Shown here: positions 1,421 through 15,707 of the stretch, piece by piece | Layout of the letters: each line of letters starts with the position of its first letter | Position numbering within the stretch: position 1 is the first letter of the stretch | IMG/VR virus record: IMGVR_UViG_3300035516_000805 | DNA from: a virus | Taxonomy: Duplodnaviria; Heunggongvirae; Uroviricota; Caudoviricetes | Reading direction: 5' to 3' (one strand) | Length of the DNA: 16,101 nt | Made by a program: the position numbers and the translations under genes | The notes under the pieces: model-generated | Told to the model about the DNA's origin: nothing | Seen by the model: the letters and a program-made list of their open reading frames with translations, nothing else | Databases searched by the model: none

Positions 1421-1423
1421 CAT

Positions 1424-1455
1424 ACTATTGACATTATTAATAATTCAATGTCATA
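1424..1455 (+). promoter_or_regulatory. 32-bp palindromic promoter/operator, copy 1
   Basis: ACTATTGACATTATTAATAATTCAATGTCATA is identical to 5851-5882. It contains TTGACA and the inverted repeat TGACATT-N11-AATGTCA, and lies 33 nt upstream of the ATG at 1488. Confidence 0.8.
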
Positions 1456-1487
1456 GTTCAAATAAGGAAAGCAAGGAGGAATTAATT

Positions 1488-3784: not shown

Positions 3785-3815
3785 AATAAAAGTCCTAAAA
3801 GGACTTTTATTTTTT
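3785..3815 (+). terminator. Intrinsic terminator whose core matches hairpin B of the double-hairpin units
   Basis: AATAAAAGTCCT-AAA-AGGACTTTTATT is a perfect 12-bp stem followed by TTTT. The 15-nt core AGTCCTAAAAGGACT is identical at 7853-7867 and 13406-13420. Confidence 0.75.
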
Positions 3816-5837: not shown

Positions 5838-5850
5838 AAAAATATTTAGA

Positions 5851-5882
5851 ACTATTGACATTATTAATAATTCAATGTCATA
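5851..5882 (+). promoter_or_regulatory. 32-bp palindromic promoter/operator, copy 2
   Basis: 32/32 identical to 1424-1455. TTGACA at 5855-5860, candidate extended -10 TGnCATATT. Confidence 0.8.
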
Positions 5883-6210
5883 TTAAAAATGAAGATAAGA
5901 AATAATCTTTGAGAACAAAGCGACTGGACATCAAAGGATGTATTAGTGGGTAACAAAGATTATAGTAAAATGGATATTTTATTAAATTAAGAAACAAAAA
6001 ATTTTAAATAAAAAAAATGTGGTTAATATACTGTTATTCCCAAACATTATAAATGAAAATATTGCGATATTAGATTTTATAATCTTCATTGAAATATGAA
6101 GTTCAATAAAAAGTTTGGTTTTACTAACGAGTAAAATAAGTTGTAGTGAATAACGTTAAAATATTAATACATCGCAAGTAACTTTTAGGTAAAAGTTGTA
6201 CTACGATTTA
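5883..6210 (+). ncRNA. Candidate structured leader or ncRNA (unclassified)
   Basis: About 350 nt without a credible ORF directly after promoter copy 2, with several nested helices (see findings). The AT-rich background makes chance pairing likely for the short helices. Confidence 0.3.
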
Positions 6211-7772: not shown

Positions 7773-7805
7773 AATAGAAGTTCATAAAAGAACTTCTATT
7801 TTTTT
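7773..7805 (+). terminator. Intrinsic terminator after the HEPN-like gene
   Basis: AATAGAAGTTC / GAACTTCTATT, perfect 11 bp with loop ATAAAA, then a T run. Confidence 0.75.
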
Positions 7806-7877
7806 ACAGTTATTTTCTATTAAAAAACAGAACTTCCAACACTACTGATAGTAGTCCTAAAAGGACTACTATCTAAG
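7806..7877 (-). repeat. Double-hairpin unit U1 (second arm of hairpin A degenerate)
   Basis: Minus strand reads CTTAG-ATAGTAGTCCT-TTT-AGGACTACTAT-CAGTAGT-GTTGGAAGTTCT...AACTGT. Positions 7829-7877 match U6 except for a compensated stem pair and an inverted loop. The left boundary is approximate. Confidence 0.85.
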
Positions 7878-7952
7878 GTTCTCATCGAATTTTTATTAAA
7901 ATAAAAATTTCGATTTTACATTATTATAATATCAACGATAAGGAGATATTAT

Positions 7953-10900
7953 ATGAAAACATTAGAAGAATTAGGTATAGAAAAAACTGATTTAGTTAGC
8001 CATAATCATTGTGCCACTGTTCAAGATGCTGTTTGTGGCGGTGTTGCAATGTGCAAAGGCGCACAAAACGCCGGATATTCTGCAATTGCAATTACAGACC
8101 ACGGAAACTTTTGCGGTATGCAGGACTGCTTAGATTATGCTGCAAATACTAAAGGTGCTTTAAAAGTAATTTATGGACTTGAAGGTTATTTGAATTATAA
8201 AAATAAACAGTTAAATGAAAATAATGAATTAATTGAAGATAACACTTTATTGAGAAACCGTCATATTCTTTGGCTTGCAAAGGACGAACAGGGAAAGCAT
8301 TTAATTGATAAAGTAAATGCTCAGGCAGACTTATATCGTGGTGTTCCTTCTATTAATTTTGAAGATATTAAACAATTATCAGGTGGACATGTAATATGTC
8401 AGACTGCCTGTATCGCTTCTCCTGCCGGTGAATATTTATTACATAATTATAATCTGGAACATAAAAAGTCTTTAAAGAAAACACAAAGAAAGATTAAAAC
8501 TGATACAGTAGAAACTATTCCTGTTCATGACAAAGAACCTTGGACACAGGAAGAAATGTATGAGAAAGCTAAGAATTATGTAAAAGAATTACAGGATATT
8601 TTTGGAGAAGATTTATTTGTAGAAATACAATATCACGGTTTAGAGCAAGAGAAAATTGTATATCCGCAAATGGTAAAGATTGCTAAAGAGCTTAATCTTC
8701 CACTTGTTATTACAAATGATGCTCATATGCCGGATAATTCAAGGAAATCTATTAATCAAAGAAAAGTAGCTGTTTATAAGCGTTATAAAAATGCTGCTGA
8801 TGATGAGGAACGGGAAGATGCAAATGATGAAATGTATATTAAATCACAAGAAGAACTTGCCAATTTCTTATTAGATAGTGGTCTTTATGATATAGAAGAT
8901 ATCCGTGAAGGCTTTCATTCTTTGAATGTTATAAATGAGAGATGTACTTATGAACAGAAAATTGAAGACCATGCTCCAAAATATGTACCATCTGAAACAG
9001 AAAAAAAAGAAGATGGAAGCTTTGACAGTAAAGAAAAATTAAGAGAAATCGCAATGAACGGATTACTTAATTGGCGTTTCAAAAATGGTTTTCCTGATGA
9101 AGAAACAAAAAAGAAATATATTGACAGGTTAAATTATGAATTAGACGTTATCTGTAATATGGGTTATGCAGATTATTTTTTAATTGTAAAAGACTTTCTG
9201 GAATATGGACGAGTTATCGCAGGCGTACCTAAAGATAAAATGAGCGAAGTCCCGCTTACTATCGAAGAAGCAAAAATATGGTGTGAAGAACATCATTATA
9301 CTATAGGATTTGGTATTGGTGTAGGACGTGGTTCCGGTGCAGGTTCATTAGTAGCTTATACAACAGGTATAACCGGTGTAGACCCTATTCCATTTGATTT
9401 GATTTTTGAACGTTTTTTAAATCCACAAAGAATAACTATGCCTGATATAGACAGTGATTTAGCTATGTATGTCCGTGAAAAATGCGTTGAATATGTTATT
9501 CACAAATACGGAGAAAAGAATGTTGTTGGTATTCAGACAAAAGCTATTATTCACCCTAAAAAAGGATTATCTGATGCTAAAATCTATTTATGTGAAGAAA
9601 AAGGCTGGAACGCTCAGGAAACACAAAAATTAGTATCTTTGATTAGTAAAGAAATTCCGAATTTAGTAAACTGGGATAGTAAAGTTGACCCTTTAAACCC
9701 TAACAGTTTAACATATTATCAGTCTATTAGTGATAAATTTAAAGATACTCCACATGCAAAGGAATTGATTGATTTAAGTTATGACCTTGAAGGCTCATTA
9801 ACTTCTTTAAGTGTTCACGCAGCAGGTAAAATTATTTTTGACAATTCCTATGAGAATGGTGTTATTGGTTATACACCTACAACCACAGCAAAAAAAGATA
9901 ATCAAAAAGTTATTGAAATGGATATGTCACAGGCTGAACACGCCGGACTGTTAAAAATGGACTTTTTAGGACTTCGTACTTTAAATATTATCACAGAAGC
10001 AAAACAGTTGATATTTAGGGAAAGAAAAGAAGACGTTGATGTTACTCAGACTATTTTACAAAATGACGAAAAATGCGTTGAAATGTATAAGTTATTTTTA
10101 AAAGCTGAAACAGGTAACATATTTCAGTTTAACTCTACCGGTATGAAACAGACAATGCAGCAATTATTTGATGGTATAAAACTGCAGGATATAACTGCAA
10201 AGAAAATGATTGACTGGCTTACGGCTTTAAATGCACTTTATAGACCGGGACCTATGGATGAAATTCCTAATTTTATGAAAAACCGTAATGGTATTGTAAT
10301 AAAATTATCAGAAGACAAACGAATTGAAGATATTGTATCCGTAACAAATGGCATTATAGTTTATCAGGAACAGGTTATGCGTATTTGTACAGACTGTGCA
10401 GGTTTTTCTATGGGAGAAGCTGACAATATCCGTAAATTTATGAGTAAGAAAAAACCTGATAAAATTGCTGAATACAGAGAATATTTTATTTATGGCAATA
10501 AAGAAAAAGGTATTAAAGGCTGTGTTAATAATGGTATGTCTGAAAAAGATGCTATTGAGATTTATGATAAAATGACTGCCTTTGCCAGTTATGCATTTAA
10601 TAAATCTCATGCTTTGGTATATGCTTTAACAGCTATGTATTGTATGTATTTAAAGGCTAATTATCCGGCTGAGTATTTATGTGCATGTTTAAACTGGGTA
10701 AGTGGAACTAAGGCAGATATACAGAGAAAAGAAGCAATTGCAGATATACATAAAATGGGTGTTGAGTTAGTACCACCTGATATTAATAATTCAAATGAAG
10801 ATACAGATGTTAAAAATGGTAAGATTATTTATGGATTAAATATGATTAAAAATATTAACAGTATATCTGATATTTTAGCTGAAAGAAAAGAAAACGGTGT

Positions 10901-12116
10901 ATTCATTAATTTAAAAGACTTCTTAATTCGTACAAAGCCAAATAAAAAAGTATTTGAATCATTAATGTATGCAGGAGCCTTAGATAAGATAATTGGTTTT
11001 CCAAGACAGAATTTATTTGAAAATATTACGAATAGTGAGACAAAACCTTATGAACAATTACTTGAAATTGTTGGAAATTATAAAGATTCTGTTGAAAAAT
11101 TAGAAGCATTAAATAAAGCACTTCGTATCTTACATCAATGCAATGGAATGATTACGATTGAAGAATTCCAAGAAAAATGTATTTCAGCAGGAATCGCAGC
11201 TTCTAGTTTTAATTATAACACGAAAAAAGTTCCGGCAGTATCTAAATTAGAGGACCGTAGAGATAATATTAGAAATGCTATTTATGAATATGACCGACAA
11301 TTAAGTGACTTTATTGAAGAACTATCAGAAAGAAACGTACCGGAAACAAACGTAAAAGTAAAAGAGTATGAAATGTTAGGACATTTTATTAATCATCCAT
11401 TACAAGGAATACCAACATTGGAATTCATAAATGATGAAGGGAAAAGTCCAAATAAATTAACCGGTATATTAACAGATGTTAAGGTTAATGTATCAAAGAA
11501 AAGTGGTCAAAAATATATGACTGCAACACTTTCTGATGAATTAAATTCAATTGATGTAATTGTATTTGGAAATGCTATACAGAAAATTGAACAAAATAAT
11601 AAACTTAATTTGTTAACAAACGTATCTGCAGTTACATTAACAGGAAATCTTAATATAGAAGAGAATGAAGTTGATACTGGGGAGTATGATGAAGACGGTA
11701 ATTCAATCACAACTATGGAATATAAGAGAACATTTTTTGTTAATGATGTAGAACGATTTAACATTAAATCCTTAAACAAAAAATCAGAAATGTTTTTATT
11801 AAACGTTCCAAGTAGGGGATACTATGAAAGTAATTTAAAAGAGTATTTAAAATCAAAGAGTGTTGAAAAAGACGGTCTTCCACTTACAATCGTAGAAACC
11901 GGATATGATAAAGTAAATAATAGAACATATCATAATTTTCACCGGACAATGTTAGAACAGGAATTTACATTGTCAGAACACGCTTTAAGATTAAATTATA
12001 CGGATGAATTTAAAGAGCACGGAATTGAATTAAAAAAAGTTGACTTAAATAGTAATTCTTTCTTGGATAGTAGTCTGAAAACTACTATCAGTACTGTTAG
12101 TACTGTTGAAAGGTGA
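7953..12116 (+). CDS. dnaE: DNA polymerase III alpha subunit (DnaE type, PHP + polymerase + HhH + OB)
   Basis: PHP motifs HNH, TDHG, GLE, NDAH; GRGSGAGSLVAY; FERFLNP; MPDIDSD; KMDFLGLRTL; IVYQEQVM; YAFNKSHA; C-terminal OB fold. RBS AAGGAG. The last 17 codons derive from repeat U2. Confidence 0.97.
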   Translation: MKTLEELGIEKTDLVSHNHCATVQDAVCGGVAMCKGAQNAGYSAIAITDHGNFCGMQDCLDYAANTKGALKVIYGLEGYLNYKNKQLNENNELIEDNTLLRNRHILWLAKDEQGKHLIDKVNAQADLYRGVPSINFEDIKQLSGGHVICQTACIASPAGEYLLHNYNLEHKKSLKKTQRKIKTDTVETIPVHDKEPWTQEEMYEKAKNYVKELQDIFGEDLFVEIQYHGLEQEKIVYPQMVKIAKELNLPLVITNDAHMPDNSRKSINQRKVAVYKRYKNAADDEEREDANDEMYIKSQEELANFLLDSGLYDIEDIREGFHSLNVINERCTYEQKIEDHAPKYVPSETEKKEDGSFDSKEKLREIAMNGLLNWRFKNGFPDEETKKKYIDRLNYELDVICNMGYADYFLIVKDFLEYGRVIAGVPKDKMSEVPLTIEEAKIWCEEHHYTIGFGIGVGRGSGAGSLVAYTTGITGVDPIPFDLIFERFLNPQRITMPDIDSDLAMYVREKCVEYVIHKYGEKNVVGIQTKAIIHPKKGLSDAKIYLCEEKGWNAQETQKLVSLISKEIPNLVNWDSKVDPLNPNSLTYYQSISDKFKDTPHAKELIDLSYDLEGSLTSLSVHAAGKIIFDNSYENGVIGYTPTTTAKKDNQKVIEMDMSQAEHAGLLKMDFLGLRTLNIITEAKQLIFRERKEDVDVTQTILQNDEKCVEMYKLFLKAETGNIFQFNSTGMKQTMQQLFDGIKLQDITAKKMIDWLTALNALYRPGPMDEIPNFMKNRNGIVIKLSEDKRIEDIVSVTNGIIVYQEQVMRICTDCAGFSMGEADNIRKFMSKKKPDKIAEYREYFIYGNKEKGIKGCVNNGMSEKDAIEIYDKMTAFASYAFNKSHALVYALTAMYCMYLKANYPAEYLCACLNWVSGTKADIQRKEAIADIHKMGVELVPPDINNSNEDTDVKNGKIIYGLNMIKNINSISDILAERKENGVFINLKDFLIRTKPNKKVFESLMYAGALDKIIGFPRQNLFENITNSETKPYEQLLEIVGNYKDSVEKLEALNKALRILHQCNGMITIEEFQEKCISAGIAASSFNYNTKKVPAVSKLEDRRDNIRNAIYEYDRQLSDFIEELSERNVPETNVKVKEYEMLGHFINHPLQGIPTLEFINDEGKSPNKLTGILTDVKVNVSKKSGQKYMTATLSDELNSIDVIVFGNAIQKIEQNNKLNLLTNVSAVTLTGNLNIEENEVDTGEYDEDGNSITTMEYKRTFFVNDVERFNIKSLNKKSEMFLLNVPSRGYYESNLKEYLKSKSVEKDGLPLTIVETGYDKVNNRTYHNFHRTMLEQEFTLSEHALRLNYTDEFKEHGIELKKVDLNSNSFLDSSLKTTISTVSTVER

Positions 12117-12208
12117 AACTTAGATGGTAGTTTTATAAAACTACCATTAGTAGTGTTAGTTTGTTGGTAGATAAAATCTACCAACAAACTAACTGACCTT
12201 CCAACTAA
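12062..12208 (+). repeat. Double-hairpin unit U2 (outer), overlapping the dnaE 3' end and interrupted by U3
   Basis: With U3 removed it reads CTTGG-ATAGTAGTC-TGAA-AACTACTAT-CAGTACT-GTT(AGTACTGTT)GAAAGGT-GAA-ACCTTCCAAC-TAA. It includes a 9-bp tandem duplication. Confidence 0.8.
12119..12196 (+). repeat. Double-hairpin unit U3 (78 bp, nested in U2)
   Basis: CTTAG-ATGGTAGTTTT-AT-AAAACTACCAT-TAGTAGT-GTTAGTTTGTTGGTAGAT-AAA-ATCTACCAACAAACTAAC-TGA; perfect 11-12 bp and 18 bp stems. Confidence 0.9.
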
Positions 12209-12234
12209 CCGGTAAATTCCATAAAAGATTTACT

Positions 12235-12290
12235 AAAAAAATACACAGATTAAAAAAGTTCTTTAAACCTTATAATCTGTGTATCTTTTT
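12235..12290. terminator. Probable bidirectional terminator between dnaE and the convergent operon
   Basis: ATACACAGATTA (12241-12252) / TAATCTGTGTAT (12273-12284), flanked by an A run and a T run. The 20-nt loop is unusually long. Confidence 0.6.
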
Positions 12291-12304
12291 ATATTAGCAA
12301 TAAA

Positions 12305-12643
12305 TTATTTACGTTGAGAATTATAACGCCATTGCTTTCCATAACAGATATATCCGTATCCATATTCACAACCTGTTTTACATTTATGGATACAGTCAAC
12401 ACATTCATGTTTGTATAAGAATATGAACAATTTAGAATGATTAAACGGAATACATTTTTCACAGTCGGAATTCAGAATTCGTTTCCATTCTTCCCATAGA
12501 ATATTATCTTCTTCTTTTGTGTTCATGAAATTTTCATAAGAGCCGCTGTAAATAACCTGTTCATCTGTATCGAAGATTGTGATTTCTTCAATATTAAACT
12601 GACTTTCATAACCTTTTAAAATATTCTTAACTTTTTTCATCAT
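12305..12643 (-). CDS. Hypothetical protein with Cys-rich C-terminus
   Basis: RBS AAGGAG. CVDCIHKCKTGC...C motif suggests metal binding. Confidence 0.7.
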   Translation of the reverse strand: MMKKVKNILKGYESQFNIEEITIFDTDEQVIYSGSYENFMNTKEEDNILWEEWKRILNSDCEKCIPFNHSKLFIFLYKHECVDCIHKCKTGCEYGYGYICYGKQWRYNSQRK

Positions 12644-12647
12644 CTAT

Positions 12648-13145
12648 TTAGCTCCTTAAATGATTTTCAACAAAGTTAACAATTTCCATAGGTGTGCAGG
12701 CATCAAATCCACACTCACTCGCTGCTTCAATACTCTTACCATTATCATCAATAAACAACACTTGGTCATAATTAATGAGCATCGCAGCGGCAATACCTTT
12801 TATCATATCAATTTTTTCTTTTCGTTTTCCAACAGAAAAGTTTTCCAATTTATACCCATAATTAAGAGTAACCCATTCAATTTTTCTTTGCATGTGTGGA
12901 AAACCAATTGTAGCAGACAACAAGCCAAATGTCTTAGTTCCACAACTATTAGCGTAATCCGTAAATTCCTTCATATGAGCATTTGGTTCACATTCTTCAA
13001 GAGGATAAACCACCTGAATAGGCTTACAAATTACATTATTATTATATACAACGTCTGATGAAATTCCACTATGCTTACTATGGATACACAGTGTATCATC
13101 AAAATCAAACAATATTAGTTTATAATTTATTATATCTTTTATCAT
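12648..13145 (-). CDS. HAD-superfamily hydrolase/phosphatase
   Basis: Motif I LILFDFDDTL, motif II LLSAT, a Lys (KRKEK) and motif IV FIDD. RBS GAGAGG. Confidence 0.8.
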   Translation of the reverse strand: MIKDIINYKLILFDFDDTLCIHSKHSGISSDVVYNNNVICKPIQVVYPLEECEPNAHMKEFTDYANSCGTKTFGLLSATIGFPHMQRKIEWVTLNYGYKLENFSVGKRKEKIDMIKGIAAAMLINYDQVLFIDDNGKSIEAASECGFDACTPMEIVNFVENHLRS

Positions 13146-13170
13146 AATTAATTTTACCTCTCTTTACAAT

Positions 13171-13284
13171 AGAATCATATTCTCAACACTACTAATAGTA
13201 GCTTAAATAATAGTTCTAAAAGAACTATTATAAGTAATGTTGGAAGATTTTATCTTCCAACTAATCTGAAGACTACTATCTAAG
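13171..13284 (-). repeat. Double-hairpin unit U4 (outer), interrupted by U5; hairpin A degenerate
   Basis: With U5 removed the minus strand reads CTTAG-ATAGTAGTC-TTCA-GACTACTAT-TAGTAGT-GTTGAGAAT-ATG-ATTCT. The left boundary is approximate. Confidence 0.8.
13202..13264 (+). repeat. Double-hairpin unit U5 (63 bp, nested antiparallel in U4)
   Basis: CTTAA-ATAATAGTTCT-AAA-AGAACTATTAT-AAGTAAT-GTTGGAAGAT-TTT-ATCTTCCAAC-TAA; both stems are perfect. Confidence 0.9.
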
Positions 13285-13298
13285 CTAGTTTATGCATA

Positions 13299-13541
13299 TT
13301 ATCTATCAATATCATAGACTGTTGGCTGCTCATCAATTGCTTTAATGCACTCTAAAATAGTGGTGTAAATCACTTGCTGCATAGTCTTATCATAACTTAG
13401 CTAGTAGTCCTAAAAGGACTACTAGCAGTAGTGTTGGAAGTTCTAAAGAACTTCCAACTGACCTAGTTCGTCCGCCGGACATTCTGAATACGCCCAATCA
13501 CTTAAATAGGCGGATAGCTTATCAGCATCAATCAATCTCAT
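13299..13541 (-). pseudogene. MRLIDAD-type prophage gene interrupted by unit U6
   Basis: ATG at 13541 overlaps the upstream TGA. It reads MRLIDADKLSAYLSDWAYSECPADELG, then 66 bp of U6 with in-frame TAG stops (first at 13445-13443), then resumes in frame YDKTMQQVIYTTILECIKAIDEQPTVYDIDR*. Not in the ORF track. Confidence 0.85.
13396..13461 (+). repeat. Double-hairpin unit U6 (66 bp, cleanest copy)
   Basis: CTTAG-CTAGTAGTCCT-AAA-AGGACTACTAG-CAGTAGT-GTTGGAAGTTCT-AA-AGAACTTCCAAC-TGA; perfect 11 and 12 bp stems. Confidence 0.92.
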
Positions 13542-13861: not shown

Positions 13862-14172
13862 TATATAATATCACCTTCCATTCCTTTTAATTGTTCTATA
13901 ATTTCATTACCTAAAAAGTTTTCTAGTTCCTCTTGCAAAGTTTCACGTTCAATTCCTTTCAATGCCTGTTCTGCTTCTTCTTCTGATAGAAACCACGTCT
14001 TCTGAAAAGTTTTATCAGTACAAATCTTTTCTATTCCAAATTCTATATATTTATTTAATTCTGCATACCATCCCTGCGAATTTATTACAATCTTTTTAAT
14101 CTTTTGGTGATAGATTCTATTAAATTCTGACAGTTCATTTAAGATATTTAATTTATAATTTATTTTATTTGG
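13861..14172 (-). pseudogene. 5'-truncated prophage-type gene abutting the IS right end
   Basis: 103 open codons PNKINYKLNILNELSEFNRIYHQKIKKIVINSQGWY...KTWFLSEEEAEQALKG...GDII* with no start codon. The stop overlaps the next ATG. The frame runs right up to the IS end at 14174. Confidence 0.75.
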
Positions 14173-14330
14173 AGTGAACTACCCACCACTTATAGAAGTG
14201 GGGGCTTCTAAGATGTTAATACATCTATTTAAGAAGTTTGATATTTAAGTTTCCACCTATTACTAGGCAATCCTTATTCTTACAGGCGTGTCCACTTCGC
14301 CTCTACTGTATAGGATAGTTAAATCCACAA
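14154..14330 (-). ncRNA. Predicted TnpB omegaRNA (reRNA) with flank-derived guide
   Basis: TnpB RNAs are known to derive from the tnpB 3' end and right end, with the guide from the flank. Visible hairpin CTTCT-AGATGT/ACATCT-AGAAG plus the right-end hairpin. Guide would begin UCCAAAUAAAAUAAAUUAUA (14173-14154). The 5' boundary is a guess. Confidence 0.65.
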
Positions 14331-15670
14331 CATTACTTTTACATAATATATTTAATGCTCCATTAACATCAGCATTAAGTGTTTTTCCATTAGAACATTG
14401 ATACATCCCTCTGTGAATACGCTTACCACTAAATATATAAATTTTAGGATTATCATTATTATAAACAGGAATTTTATCTTTATCAAAAAATGAAGCTTTT
14501 GATGTATAACTTTCTTCCTGTTTGATAAATACAATATTATTTAATTCACATAGATATTCAAGTTTTTCACGAAGTTTACCATATGGAATATTCACAAAGG
14601 TCTGATTATTAACTTTACCTATGTTTACATTTCTTTGAAATGTTTCATTATAACCTACAATAAGAGTGCCTATATTATTAATAATGCAATAATCTATAAT
14701 TTTACGAGCAACTTTATTCATATAATCATCAACCTTATTATTACGGTTACGAGTTAGAATTTTCATTCGATTGGTAGGATTTTTACCATAATGCTGTTTG
14801 TCTTTAATACTTTGTAAACGAGCAAACTCTTTATTATACCACTGGTTAATAGATTTAAGCTTTTTCCCATCAATAATAAAGGACCTTCCACTACTTGATA
14901 CAGCAGTTACGAGATTATTAATACCAAGGTCAAGAGCAAGTACATTGTTTTTATTAAGATTTCTTTGAATACATTCAGCTTCATAGGTGTACTGAATTTC
15001 AAAGAACCTTGCATTGGATTTTGGTATAATTCGAATTTCTTTAACTTTTTTATCAAGTAATACCGGCGGAATTGTAATCTCAATAGATTTATGGGTTTTC
15101 TTATATATATTAGAAAATGGTAAAATCAATTTATTCCCATTAAATCTTATAAAACCTATAACAAGAGTGGTATATCCATCTTTTGGAAGATATTTAGGTA
15201 ATTTACAATCTTTAAAAGCATACTTACCCTTTTTTGCAAGTTTTAAAAGTCCAAAGAATGACTTAAAGCTACCATCTACTTCTTTAAGAATTTGTTGTGC
15301 CATATTTGAATTAAGCAGCTTATAATTATCAGATGATTTTAAAAGGGCATAATTTTTTTCATAATTAAGATATTCGCCTTCATTAAAATAATATTGCCTA
15401 ACATTATAAATTGCCTGATTTGTTAAGTTTTTTGCGATATGGCAAAGTTCCTTAATAGAATTATAATCTTCTTTTGACAGATGTTTTACTTGTTGTTTGA
15501 CAGTTAAATACATATGATTTTTTCTCCTTTCTATAGATTTAGAGAATACTTTCTCTATGTATATATTATGACATGCATTTTACCAAAATTCCATATTTTT
15601 AGTAAAATATATTTATTATTAACATTCATCTTCCACCTATAGAGGTGGAAGTATTCTGTTAAATTTTCAG
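14174..15670 (-). mobile_element. Non-autonomous IS200/IS605-family element (IS1341-like, tnpB only), 1497 bp
   Basis: Left end: TTTAT|, then 15 nt, then AATA, then hairpin CTTCCACCT-CTAT-AGGTGGAAG (15630-15651). Right end: GAAG, then hairpin CCCCCACTT-CTAT-AAGTGGTGGG, then TAGTTCAC|. Spacing matches the known IS608 end layout. Only 156 nt lie between the left end and tnpB, so there is no tnpA. Confidence 0.9.
14263..15513 (-). CDS. tnpB: TnpB RNA-guided endonuclease (rearranged RuvC-II type)
   Basis: N-terminal AKNLTNQAIYNVRQ, RuvC-I ALDLGINN, RuvC-II region LIVGYN without the canonical Glu, EESYTSK, RuvC-III NADVNGALNI. RBS AAAGGAG. Confidence 0.93.
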   Translation of the reverse strand: MYLTVKQQVKHLSKEDYNSIKELCHIAKNLTNQAIYNVRQYYFNEGEYLNYEKNYALLKSSDNYKLLNSNMAQQILKEVDGSFKSFFGLLKLAKKGKYAFKDCKLPKYLPKDGYTTLVIGFIRFNGNKLILPFSNIYKKTHKSIEITIPPVLLDKKVKEIRIIPKSNARFFEIQYTYEAECIQRNLNKNNVLALDLGINNLVTAVSSSGRSFIIDGKKLKSINQWYNKEFARLQSIKDKQHYGKNPTNRMKILTRNRNNKVDDYMNKVARKIIDYCIINNIGTLIVGYNETFQRNVNIGKVNNQTFVNIPYGKLREKLEYLCELNNIVFIKQEESYTSKASFFDKDKIPVYNNDNPKIYIFSGKRIHRGMYQCSNGKTLNADVNGALNILCKSNVVDLTILYSRGEVDTPVRIRIA

Positions 15671-15675
15671 ATAAA

Positions 15676-15707
15676 TATGACATTGTATTACTAATAATGT
15701 CAACAGT
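15676..15707 (-). promoter_or_regulatory. 32-bp palindromic promoter/operator, copy 3
   Basis: Minus strand ACTGTTGACATTATTAGTAATACAATGTCATA is 29/32 identical to copies 1 and 2, with both palindrome arms intact. It ends immediately before the IS target TTTAT. Confidence 0.8.

Follow-up and report, generated by a model that had tools for sequence, protein, structure and literature searches.

Repeats of the REP class that carry a GTAG tag are palindromic stem-loops of 20 to 40 bp with an unpaired GTAG, or a sequence close to it, at one end; they occur as mosaics, dimers, and families, some of them intragenic, and head-to-tail dimers are rare among them (PMC3733652). Guided by GTAG, TnpA-REP cleaves at a CT dinucleotide on the 5' or the 3' side of the REP, and the group-3 REPs are perfect palindromes of 8 bp with 3-nt loops (PMC8266576). 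In this study, we analyzed a stretch of 16,101 nucleotides of the virus record IMGVR_UViG_3300035516_000805 (here called the window), in which an earlier note had described six copies of a small mobile unit made up of two hairpins, B and A, and had called it an element that it did not recognize. The window comprises positions 28-16128 of JGI contig Ga0376470_0000130 (36,826 bp), the whole of which was read. On balance, we consider it probable that the units belong to a REP/BIME-like family of hairpin modules private to this replicon, in which the B-A pair is the commonest composite and is gained or lost without target duplication. The unpaired GTAG located 1 nt 5' of a perfect palindrome of 8 to 13 bp, together with CT at both unit ends, makes the family REP/BIME-like; judged by this sequence format, it appears to be a variant of the REP/BIME class and not an unknown kind of element. 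This is the defining format of GTAG-tagged REP/BIME repeats (PMC3733652, PMC8266576), and the view of the element as unrecognized is not supported.

All six units were found at the positions proposed for them.

U1, 7806..7877, minus strand: hairpin B and a degenerate hairpin A joined by the linker AGTAGT; located downstream of the gene for a 220-aa protein and upstream of dnaE; 50 bits with the covariance model.
U2, 12062..12209, plus strand: B-A unit; the loop of its hairpin A is broken by U3.
U3, 12119..12197, plus strand: full B-A unit whose hairpin A measures 18 bp; it sits within the hairpin A loop of U2; 63.5 bits with the covariance model.
U4, 13171..13284, minus strand: B-A unit in which hairpin A is degenerate and U5 breaks the loop of hairpin B.
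U5, 13202..13265, plus strand: full B-A unit with linker AAGTAAT and 3' end TAAT, nested in U4 in the opposite orientation; 75 bits.
U6, 13396..13462, plus strand: full B-A unit, antisense within a small gene; 92.3 bits.

The core of the unit, ACTAYYANNAGTANTGTTR, had six matches in the window at no more than one mismatch, against a mean of 0.00 in 200 shuffles. The unit is 63 to 67 nt long and reads 5'-(C)TTA-hairpin B-A-GTAG-T-hairpin A-TRA(C)-3', where hairpin B is mostly xTAGTAGTxx and hairpin A is mostly GTTGGAAGxx..xxCTTCCAAC. The shared scaffold that had been proposed earlier, CTTAR-B-NAGTANT-A-TRA, was confirmed and could be refined: base pairing between R in CTTAR and N in NAGTANT leaves A-GTAG-T as the unpaired linker, and hairpin A is degenerate in U1 and U4. 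Almost every copy has a C after TRA, which sets the register at C|TTAG...TRA|C to within 1 nt. At the start of the unit, C1, T2, and T3 are invariant, as is the C that closes hairpin A, and the T after it is nearly so. The linker A-GTAG-T stands immediately before hairpin A in 11 of the 12 copies that seeded the covariance model; U5 has GTAA, and U2, another unit of the window, has GTAC.

Folding as single-stranded DNA gave two hairpins per unit, on either strand alike, with energies of -16.5 to -26 kcal/mol (z, -7.7 to -10.1); for U6, the value was -22.6 kcal/mol on each strand (z, about -8.4). Stems measure 8 to 13 bp (18 bp in U3), and loops measure about 3 to 6 nt. Across the 12 seed copies, all distinct, 96.3% of cells pair and 13 of the 21 pairs have changed on both sides, a result that was matched in 0 of 500 shuffles and that collapsed in all slid controls; G.U was present in only 5 of 243 cells. 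Two further pairings were considered and rejected, namely, a TTAG/CTRA stem closing the whole unit, which showed no covariation, and an alternative in which the linker pairs with the 3' arm of B, which is not retained among copies. The terminal symmetry of the unit amounts to just 4 nt, TTAG/CTAA.

Evidence for gain and loss came from variant contigs of other samples (L010, L011, L012, L023, and L024), which were compared against the 36.8-kb contig. At least four pairs of filled and empty alleles were obtained from these contigs, with junctions that are exact (C|TTAG...TRA|C); no filled or empty site examined had a target site duplication, in agreement with what had been proposed for the units. 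At one site, a unit is present at L023:368-434 and the 36.8-kb contig is empty at 24765|24766; the 150-nt upstream flank is 100% identical, the downstream flank is 97% identical, and the junction has a 1-nt (C) ambiguity. Two tandem units at L023:2367-2508 are missing from the 36.8-kb contig and from L024, with one junction ambiguous by 2 nt and the other carrying 3 additional nt. A third site, filled at L010:6305-6368 and in L011 and empty in the 36.8-kb contig and L012, lies within an open reading frame (ORF), where the 63 nt are in frame and the ORF stays open (200 aa when filled, 179 aa when empty); its junction has ACTGAC on both sides. At the fourth, a nested complex around a seventh unit (U8 plus U7) is absent from L010, and the junction carries an 11-nt repeat, TTCCATTTTAC. 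The whole B-A cassette of 63 to 67 nt is thereby shown to be the unit that is gained or lost.

Empty orthologous sites at four or more loci support the earlier description of a nonautonomous, mobile-looking element, for which the comparison of empty with filled alleles had been put forward as a check that could argue against mobility. That check was answered by other copies of the family rather than by U1 to U6, because the latter are fixed: they occupy the same sites in every contig that covers them (L028 and L033), and no empty allele was found among those contigs. U1 is present in strain L033 with its A side altered, and the U6 copy of L028 differs by a single change in its hairpin A loop. 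Turnover of the family is high: the L023 strain is approximately 99.1% identical to the 36.8-kb contig over 6.9 kb and differs from it by at least three unit insertions or deletions, in addition to the units within a swapped cassette. In this cassette, L023:3457-5179 corresponds to contig positions 29345-29668, so that one strain has 1.7 kb (the gene for a 212-aa protein and a radical-SAM gene) where the other has 0.3 kb; both breakpoints coincide with unit termini (left, ..TAAC|TTAG..; right, TTAAG|), and each version is lined by units or solo hairpins. Both alleles of the 179/200-aa ORF also contain a solo A hairpin with a GTAG tag (contig 21113-21165, minus strand; L010:5957-6009, plus strand), so that of the family members in this ORF, one is old and one is polymorphic.

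The unit boundaries had originally been derived from three reconstructions, all of which hold: removal of U6 restores an ORF, and the arms around U3 and around U5 pair. The arms around U3 form a perfect GTTGGAAGG/CCTTCCAAC pair in strain L033, and those around U5 are ATAGTAG/CTACTAT. Three of the approximately 9 to 10 full units are nested in other units, which make up 2.4% of the contig (chance P of about 0.001), showing that units tend to land in the hairpins of other units. The gene interrupted by U6 is as follows.

Small gene split by U6, 13302..13541, minus strand: 58 aa when restored; the present product is 32 aa.

Removal of positions 13396-13461 yields the 58-aa ORF. Its N-terminal half matches positions 1-25 of profile phrog_20593 (E value, 1.7e-4), its C-terminal half matches positions 23-44 (E value, 4e-4), and the joined sequence matches with an E value of 5.5e-12. 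Since each half alone matches consecutive parts of the profile, U6 has split a real gene. A homologue search with the restored 58-aa sequence returned only the shortened 32-aa product of the window itself. Units also alter the product of the polymerase gene.

DnaE-like polymerase III alpha gene, 7953..12116, plus strand: PHP, DNA_pol3_alpha, finger, and HHH_6 domains; between U1 and U2/U3, with its C-terminal tail read from U2.

U2 supplies the last 17 residues of DnaE and the stop codon. A 9-nt tandem duplication within U2 (12090-12107; AGTACTGTT twice) is missing from strain L033, and for this reason DnaE has 1,387 aa here and 1,384 aa in L033. Hairpin A of U2 has a mismatch here and is perfect in L033. 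Overall, units that lie in ORFs in a sense frame were shown to remain open and to add Ser/Thr-rich residues.

The extent of the family was assessed with a hidden Markov model built from 7 copies and with the covariance model built from 12 copies. The 36.8-kb contig has nine full B-A units, which are the six already described and those at contig positions 20567-20630, 29606-29672, and 34412-34477, as well as about eight partial or variant modules (solo A hairpins with a GTAG tag, solo B hairpins closed by CTTAG/CTAAG, B-B pairs, and shortened forms); the 9-kb variant contig L023 has five full units. Sense matches score about 80 to 95 bits and antisense matches about 50, and the orientation of a unit is therefore well defined. 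One weak match lies elsewhere in the window.

Weak B-like solo hairpin, 3787..3809, no strand assigned: TAAAAGTCC-TAAAA-GGACTTTTA; 20 bits with the covariance model, E value of 0.08.

Two strict unit patterns had zero matches in IMG/VR and in the GTDB representative genomes. Five pattern matches in JGI metagenomes were rejected as chance matches that lack hairpins; absence from the JGI metagenome collection is weak evidence, since that collection evidently does not include the source samples. Within the collections searched, the family appears to be private to an uncultured low-GC lineage. Short-read contigs from other samples often end in or beside units (L008 in U3, L027 in U6, and L012 at the seventh unit; also L007 and L025), as expected of multicopy repeats, which break assemblies. 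Beside U1, at 7773-7800, there is a terminator-like hairpin followed by a T-run, AATAGAAGTTC-ATAAAA-GAACTTCTATT, whose arm sequence (GAAGTTC/GAACTTC) is common to A-type unit hairpins; this sharing hints that terminators and unit hairpins exchange sequence.

The element that hosts the family is a plasmid-like replicon of Clostridia type from an uncultured lineage in animal gut metagenomes. It is low in GC (about 28%), a domain search showed that it codes for ClpP, a type IV secretion system (T4SS) coupling protein, and the DnaE-like polymerase, and the proteins of the window recur on a 91.9-kb record. Beyond the window genes, the 36.8-kb contig has two genes with a HipA_C domain. A megablast search with 9 kb found no match in phages and, in plasmids, only a TnpB gene, in Butyrivibrio. 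The closest relatives of DnaE in a homologue search are at most 34% identical, and the match in Monoglobus sits amid housekeeping genes. Among sequencing runs, a 7-kb stretch had no match. Two animal gut metatranscriptome runs, matched to a shorter stretch, contain pieces of the replicon; their contigs are scattered, none spans a unit at its ends, and they are uninformative about excision or expression. A promoter-like module, ACTATTGACATTATTAATAATTCAATGTCATA (TTGACA with an internal palindrome), is repeated ahead of several operons (window 1422-1468, 5849-5895, and 15673-15707; minus strand). Strains also differ in ways that involve no unit. One more strain-specific insertion is an HNH endonuclease gene (229 aa; L031:29-718, sample 3300035499) upstream of the gene for a 267-aa protein; the 36.8-kb contig carries other small ORFs at this place. 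At L023:3191-3195, L023 is missing the 1.6 kb that lie between the two HipA_C paralogues (contig 27480-29079), and a 133-aa hybrid ORF remains, which looks like a deletion through recombination between the paralogues.

With respect to the enzyme, the earlier note had reported that no mobilizer gene was visible in the window. That statement stands to the extent that no transposase was found there; however, an accessory nuclease had been overlooked.

TnpB gene (IS200/IS605 type, RNA-guided nuclease, no tnpA), 14263..15513, minus strand: 416 aa; NF040570, E value of 1.2e-54.

This gene belongs to a TnpB-only insertion sequence (IS) element (window 14100-15700, minus strand), whose left end carries the hairpin CTTCCACC-TCTATA-GGTGGAAG (near 15630-15652) and whose right end carries CCCACTT-CTAT-AAGTGG (near 14172-14200); the right-end hairpin is probably the omega-RNA region. 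The tnpB gene has 78% DNA identity to a copy on a Butyrivibrio proteoclasticus plasmid. We rejected TnpB as the mobilizer, as it is not a transposase and the hairpins of its IS ends are unrelated to the units. A likeness between CTTCCACC and hairpin A (CTTCCAAC) was treated as chance, the arms being swapped. A complete IS200/IS605 element, with a 138-aa TnpA and a TnpB, is present in sample 3300035498 (L010:1-1850, minus strand) after the gene for a 130-aa protein, with homology to the 36.8-kb contig ending at approximately L010:1848; its left-end hairpin is GC rich (GCCCTC..GAGGGC) and unrelated to the units. The gene tables of the 36.8-kb contig and the variant contigs list no integrase or relaxase.

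Several explanations of these data have to be weighed. That the units are functional RNA or terminator hairpins maintained by selection, and not mobile DNA, is largely refuted, and we give it next to no weight. Several units are located just after genes (U1, U2/U3, and U4), and the adjacent true terminator at 7773-7800 shares the A-type arm sequence; however, the units lie in both orientations relative to transcription, some of them inside ORFs, and their presence varies between strains that are 99% identical. They end in TRAC with no T-run after them and were rejected as intrinsic terminators; when the six units were scanned with a loose terminator pattern, only the antisense strand of hairpin A of U5 passed. 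No match was found in Rfam, where the best overlapping hits (E values of 0.35 to 0.62) were far under the gathering scores. Both orientations, equal folding of the two strands, the rarity of G.U, and the lack of an Rfam match together place the constraint on DNA rather than on RNA. Polymerase template switching at inverted repeats has a published signature of homogenized arms and an inverted spacer (PMC8604942). We observed such a flip at one orthologous site: in a stretch of 120 bases that is otherwise almost unchanged, one strain has the loop T-AAA-A and two others have T-TTT-A. A DNA-level process is therefore a better reading of the covariation than selection for an RNA fold: from what is known of this mutational process, intrastrand template switching at the inverted repeats would keep the stems perfect and flip the loops, and the covariation of the units should not be taken as evidence for an RNA. 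We consider it rather unlikely that the units also spread and disappear with no dedicated enzyme, by copy choice or template switching among templates rich in hairpins, via short homologies at unit ends, and by precise deletion between short repeats in the flanks, stimulated by the hairpins. The loop flip and the Watson-Crick-only covariation show that template switching acts on these hairpins (PMC8604942), the hairpin regions change far more quickly than the sequence beside them (L033, U1 and U3), two junctions have repeats identical to the 3' end of the unit itself (ACTGAC in the ORF, the 11-nt repeat at the U8 site), and no mobilizer was found on the contigs examined. The remaining junctions, however, have only 0 to 2 nt of homology and yet are exact to the unit ends, and one cassette of 63 to 67 nt, with conserved unpaired CTTA, AGTAGT, and TRAC, recurs in unrelated contexts; such conservation of single-stranded motifs resembles recognition by a protein and not slippage.

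The units might be MITEs (miniature transposable elements with inverted repeats) of the PATE type, moved by the TnpA of a resident IS200/IS605 element, with the TnpB element of the window as a relative, which would agree with the hairpins at the ends and with the absence of both target duplication and terminal protein genes; a TnpB is indeed encoded in the window, and TnpA plus TnpB are encoded on the related contig L010. We regard this as improbable, since the IS hairpins of both L010 and the window are unlike B and A, both in sequence and in the order of the arms, no 4- to 5-nt target is conserved in the left flanks, and hairpin-to-end spacing is 0 to 4 nt here. In IS608, this spacing is about 10 to 19 nt. 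Site-specific recombination of folded single-stranded DNA, in which the units would serve an integron-like tyrosine recombinase or the plasmid's conjugative relaxase as cassettes without cargo or as pseudo-oriT sites, seems very unlikely to us. The replicon passes through a single-stranded stage, given its T4SS coupling protein; the unit start, TTAGAT, fits TTRRRY; hairpin A has the form GTTRRRR..YYYYAAC; and the breakpoints of the two-gene cassette swap of 1.7 kb fall at unit termini. Against this, no integrase or relaxase is present on the contigs examined, the order of the core-like boxes is opposite to that in attC, and the nested insertions are not at G^TT. Integron attC sites as such (RYYYAAC...GTTRRRY, G^TT) were rejected on the same grounds, the boxes being reversed (GTTGGAAG..CTTCCAAC). 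A related idea, which we rate as a long shot, is that B-A is a minimal single-stranded cassette handled by an enzyme of the plasmid's own single-stranded DNA cycle (a conjugative relaxase or some other, unrecognized nuclease) in place of a RAYT, and that the termini C|TTAG and TRAC| would join whole gene cassettes exchanged among variants of the plasmid; if this were true, it would amount to integron-like gene shuffling without an integrase. MITEs of the terminal inverted repeat type (Correia or IS630/Tc1 derived) were also rejected, as there is only the 4-nt terminal symmetry and no duplication (1- to 2-nt ambiguity).

A hairpin-based mechanism, either single stranded or by template switching, was also suggested in the earlier note and is still the best fit. 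Within it, we tentatively propose, as a serious possibility that falls somewhat short of being probable, that the units move as single-stranded DNA with folded hairpins and that the reaction is catalyzed in trans by a Y1 HUH enzyme (RAYT or TnpA-REP like) encoded elsewhere. In that case, GTAG would serve as guide, and cleavage would be predicted at the CT dinucleotides that are conserved at the two ends of the unit. A number of observations weigh against the REP/BIME-like interpretation or this route of movement. No Y1/HUH or RAYT gene was found on the 36.8-kb contig or on most variant contigs, either in the gene tables or in a relaxed Pfam scan of 10 ORFs of unknown function, and the only TnpA found, that of L010, belongs to an ordinary IS200/IS605 element and was rejected as the mobilizer. 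The units show no strand bias (about 8 plus and 6 minus). IS200/IS605-type chemistry predicts a 5' target word, and none is fixed over the nine left flanks of insertions (TGAC, TGCC, TATC, TATC, TAAC, AAAC, TAGC, GAAC, and TTAC); by hand count, seven of the nine have T at position -4, and the resulting T-N-N-C tendency, which is similar to the TRAC end of the unit itself, is no more than suggestive. The 6-nt and 11-nt repeats at two of the junctions are also compatible with slippage. Insertion is not polarized against precise excision, because a homologue search with the 179-aa protein found no outgroup. Finally, REPINs are inverted pairs, whereas the units here are head-to-tail pairs of two different hairpins, the rare type of dimer (PMC3733652).

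The activity of TnpA-REP has been characterized in vitro (PMC8266576), and the in-cell movement of REP-type repeats is still unsettled. Once its mobilizer is found, the present family would be a compact natural test case, with several apparently recent events of gain or loss, strains of approximately 99% identity, junctions resolved to the base, nesting in hairpin loops, some in-frame insertions in genes, and a small replicon. The effects of the units on that replicon are diverse: they have rewritten the tail of DnaE, split a small gene, and added linkers in an ORF, they break short-read assemblies, and they coincide with the breakpoints of a cassette swap.

Compared with described repeats, the family has most in common with the GTAG-tagged REP, BIME, and REPIN sequences (PMC3733652, PMC3116915, PMC8266576), with which it shares the GTAG foot, CT dinucleotides beside the palindromes, the absence of target duplication, many dispersed copies that are mostly intergenic and sometimes intragenic, mosaics of hairpin types, and a replicating unit that is a doublet rather than a lone hairpin. 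It differs from REP/BIME repeats in its AT-rich stems, in its location on a plasmid-like replicon of Clostridia type instead of a proteobacterial chromosome, in its tens rather than hundreds of copies, and in that no flanked RAYT gene (REPtron) is present on the 36.8-kb contig or the variant contigs. With the palindrome-associated transposable elements (PATEs), which are IS200/IS605-derived MITEs, it shares two subterminal hairpins, the lack of a terminal inverted repeat or target duplication signature, a single-stranded DNA logic, and the presence of IS200/IS605 genes in the same replicon family; unlike PATEs, it has hairpins that match neither IS copy's ends and that abut the ends of the unit, and no target of 4 or 5 nt is conserved. 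The double-hairpin elements of Allomyces mitochondria are likewise small mobile units of two adjacent hairpins, found in intergenic regions and in genes, with compensatory changes; however, they are organellar and GC rich, have no GTAG tag, and show no sequence relation, so that the analogy is one of behavior only. In-frame insertion into ORFs that stay open, seen here in the change from 179 to 200 aa and in the DnaE tail, is shared with the Rickettsia palindromic elements, which are 100 to 150 bp long, consist of one long hairpin, and belong to another sequence family and host. The small dispersed repeats of cyanobacteria (Elhai et al. 2008) are reportedly single modules of 21 to 27 nt that nest and insert without duplication; they are alike in being tiny nested hairpins without duplication, but they have no sequence relation to the units. 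Set against these systems, the family is unusual in that two different hairpins in tandem make up the mobile unit and that it resides on a plasmid of Clostridia type.

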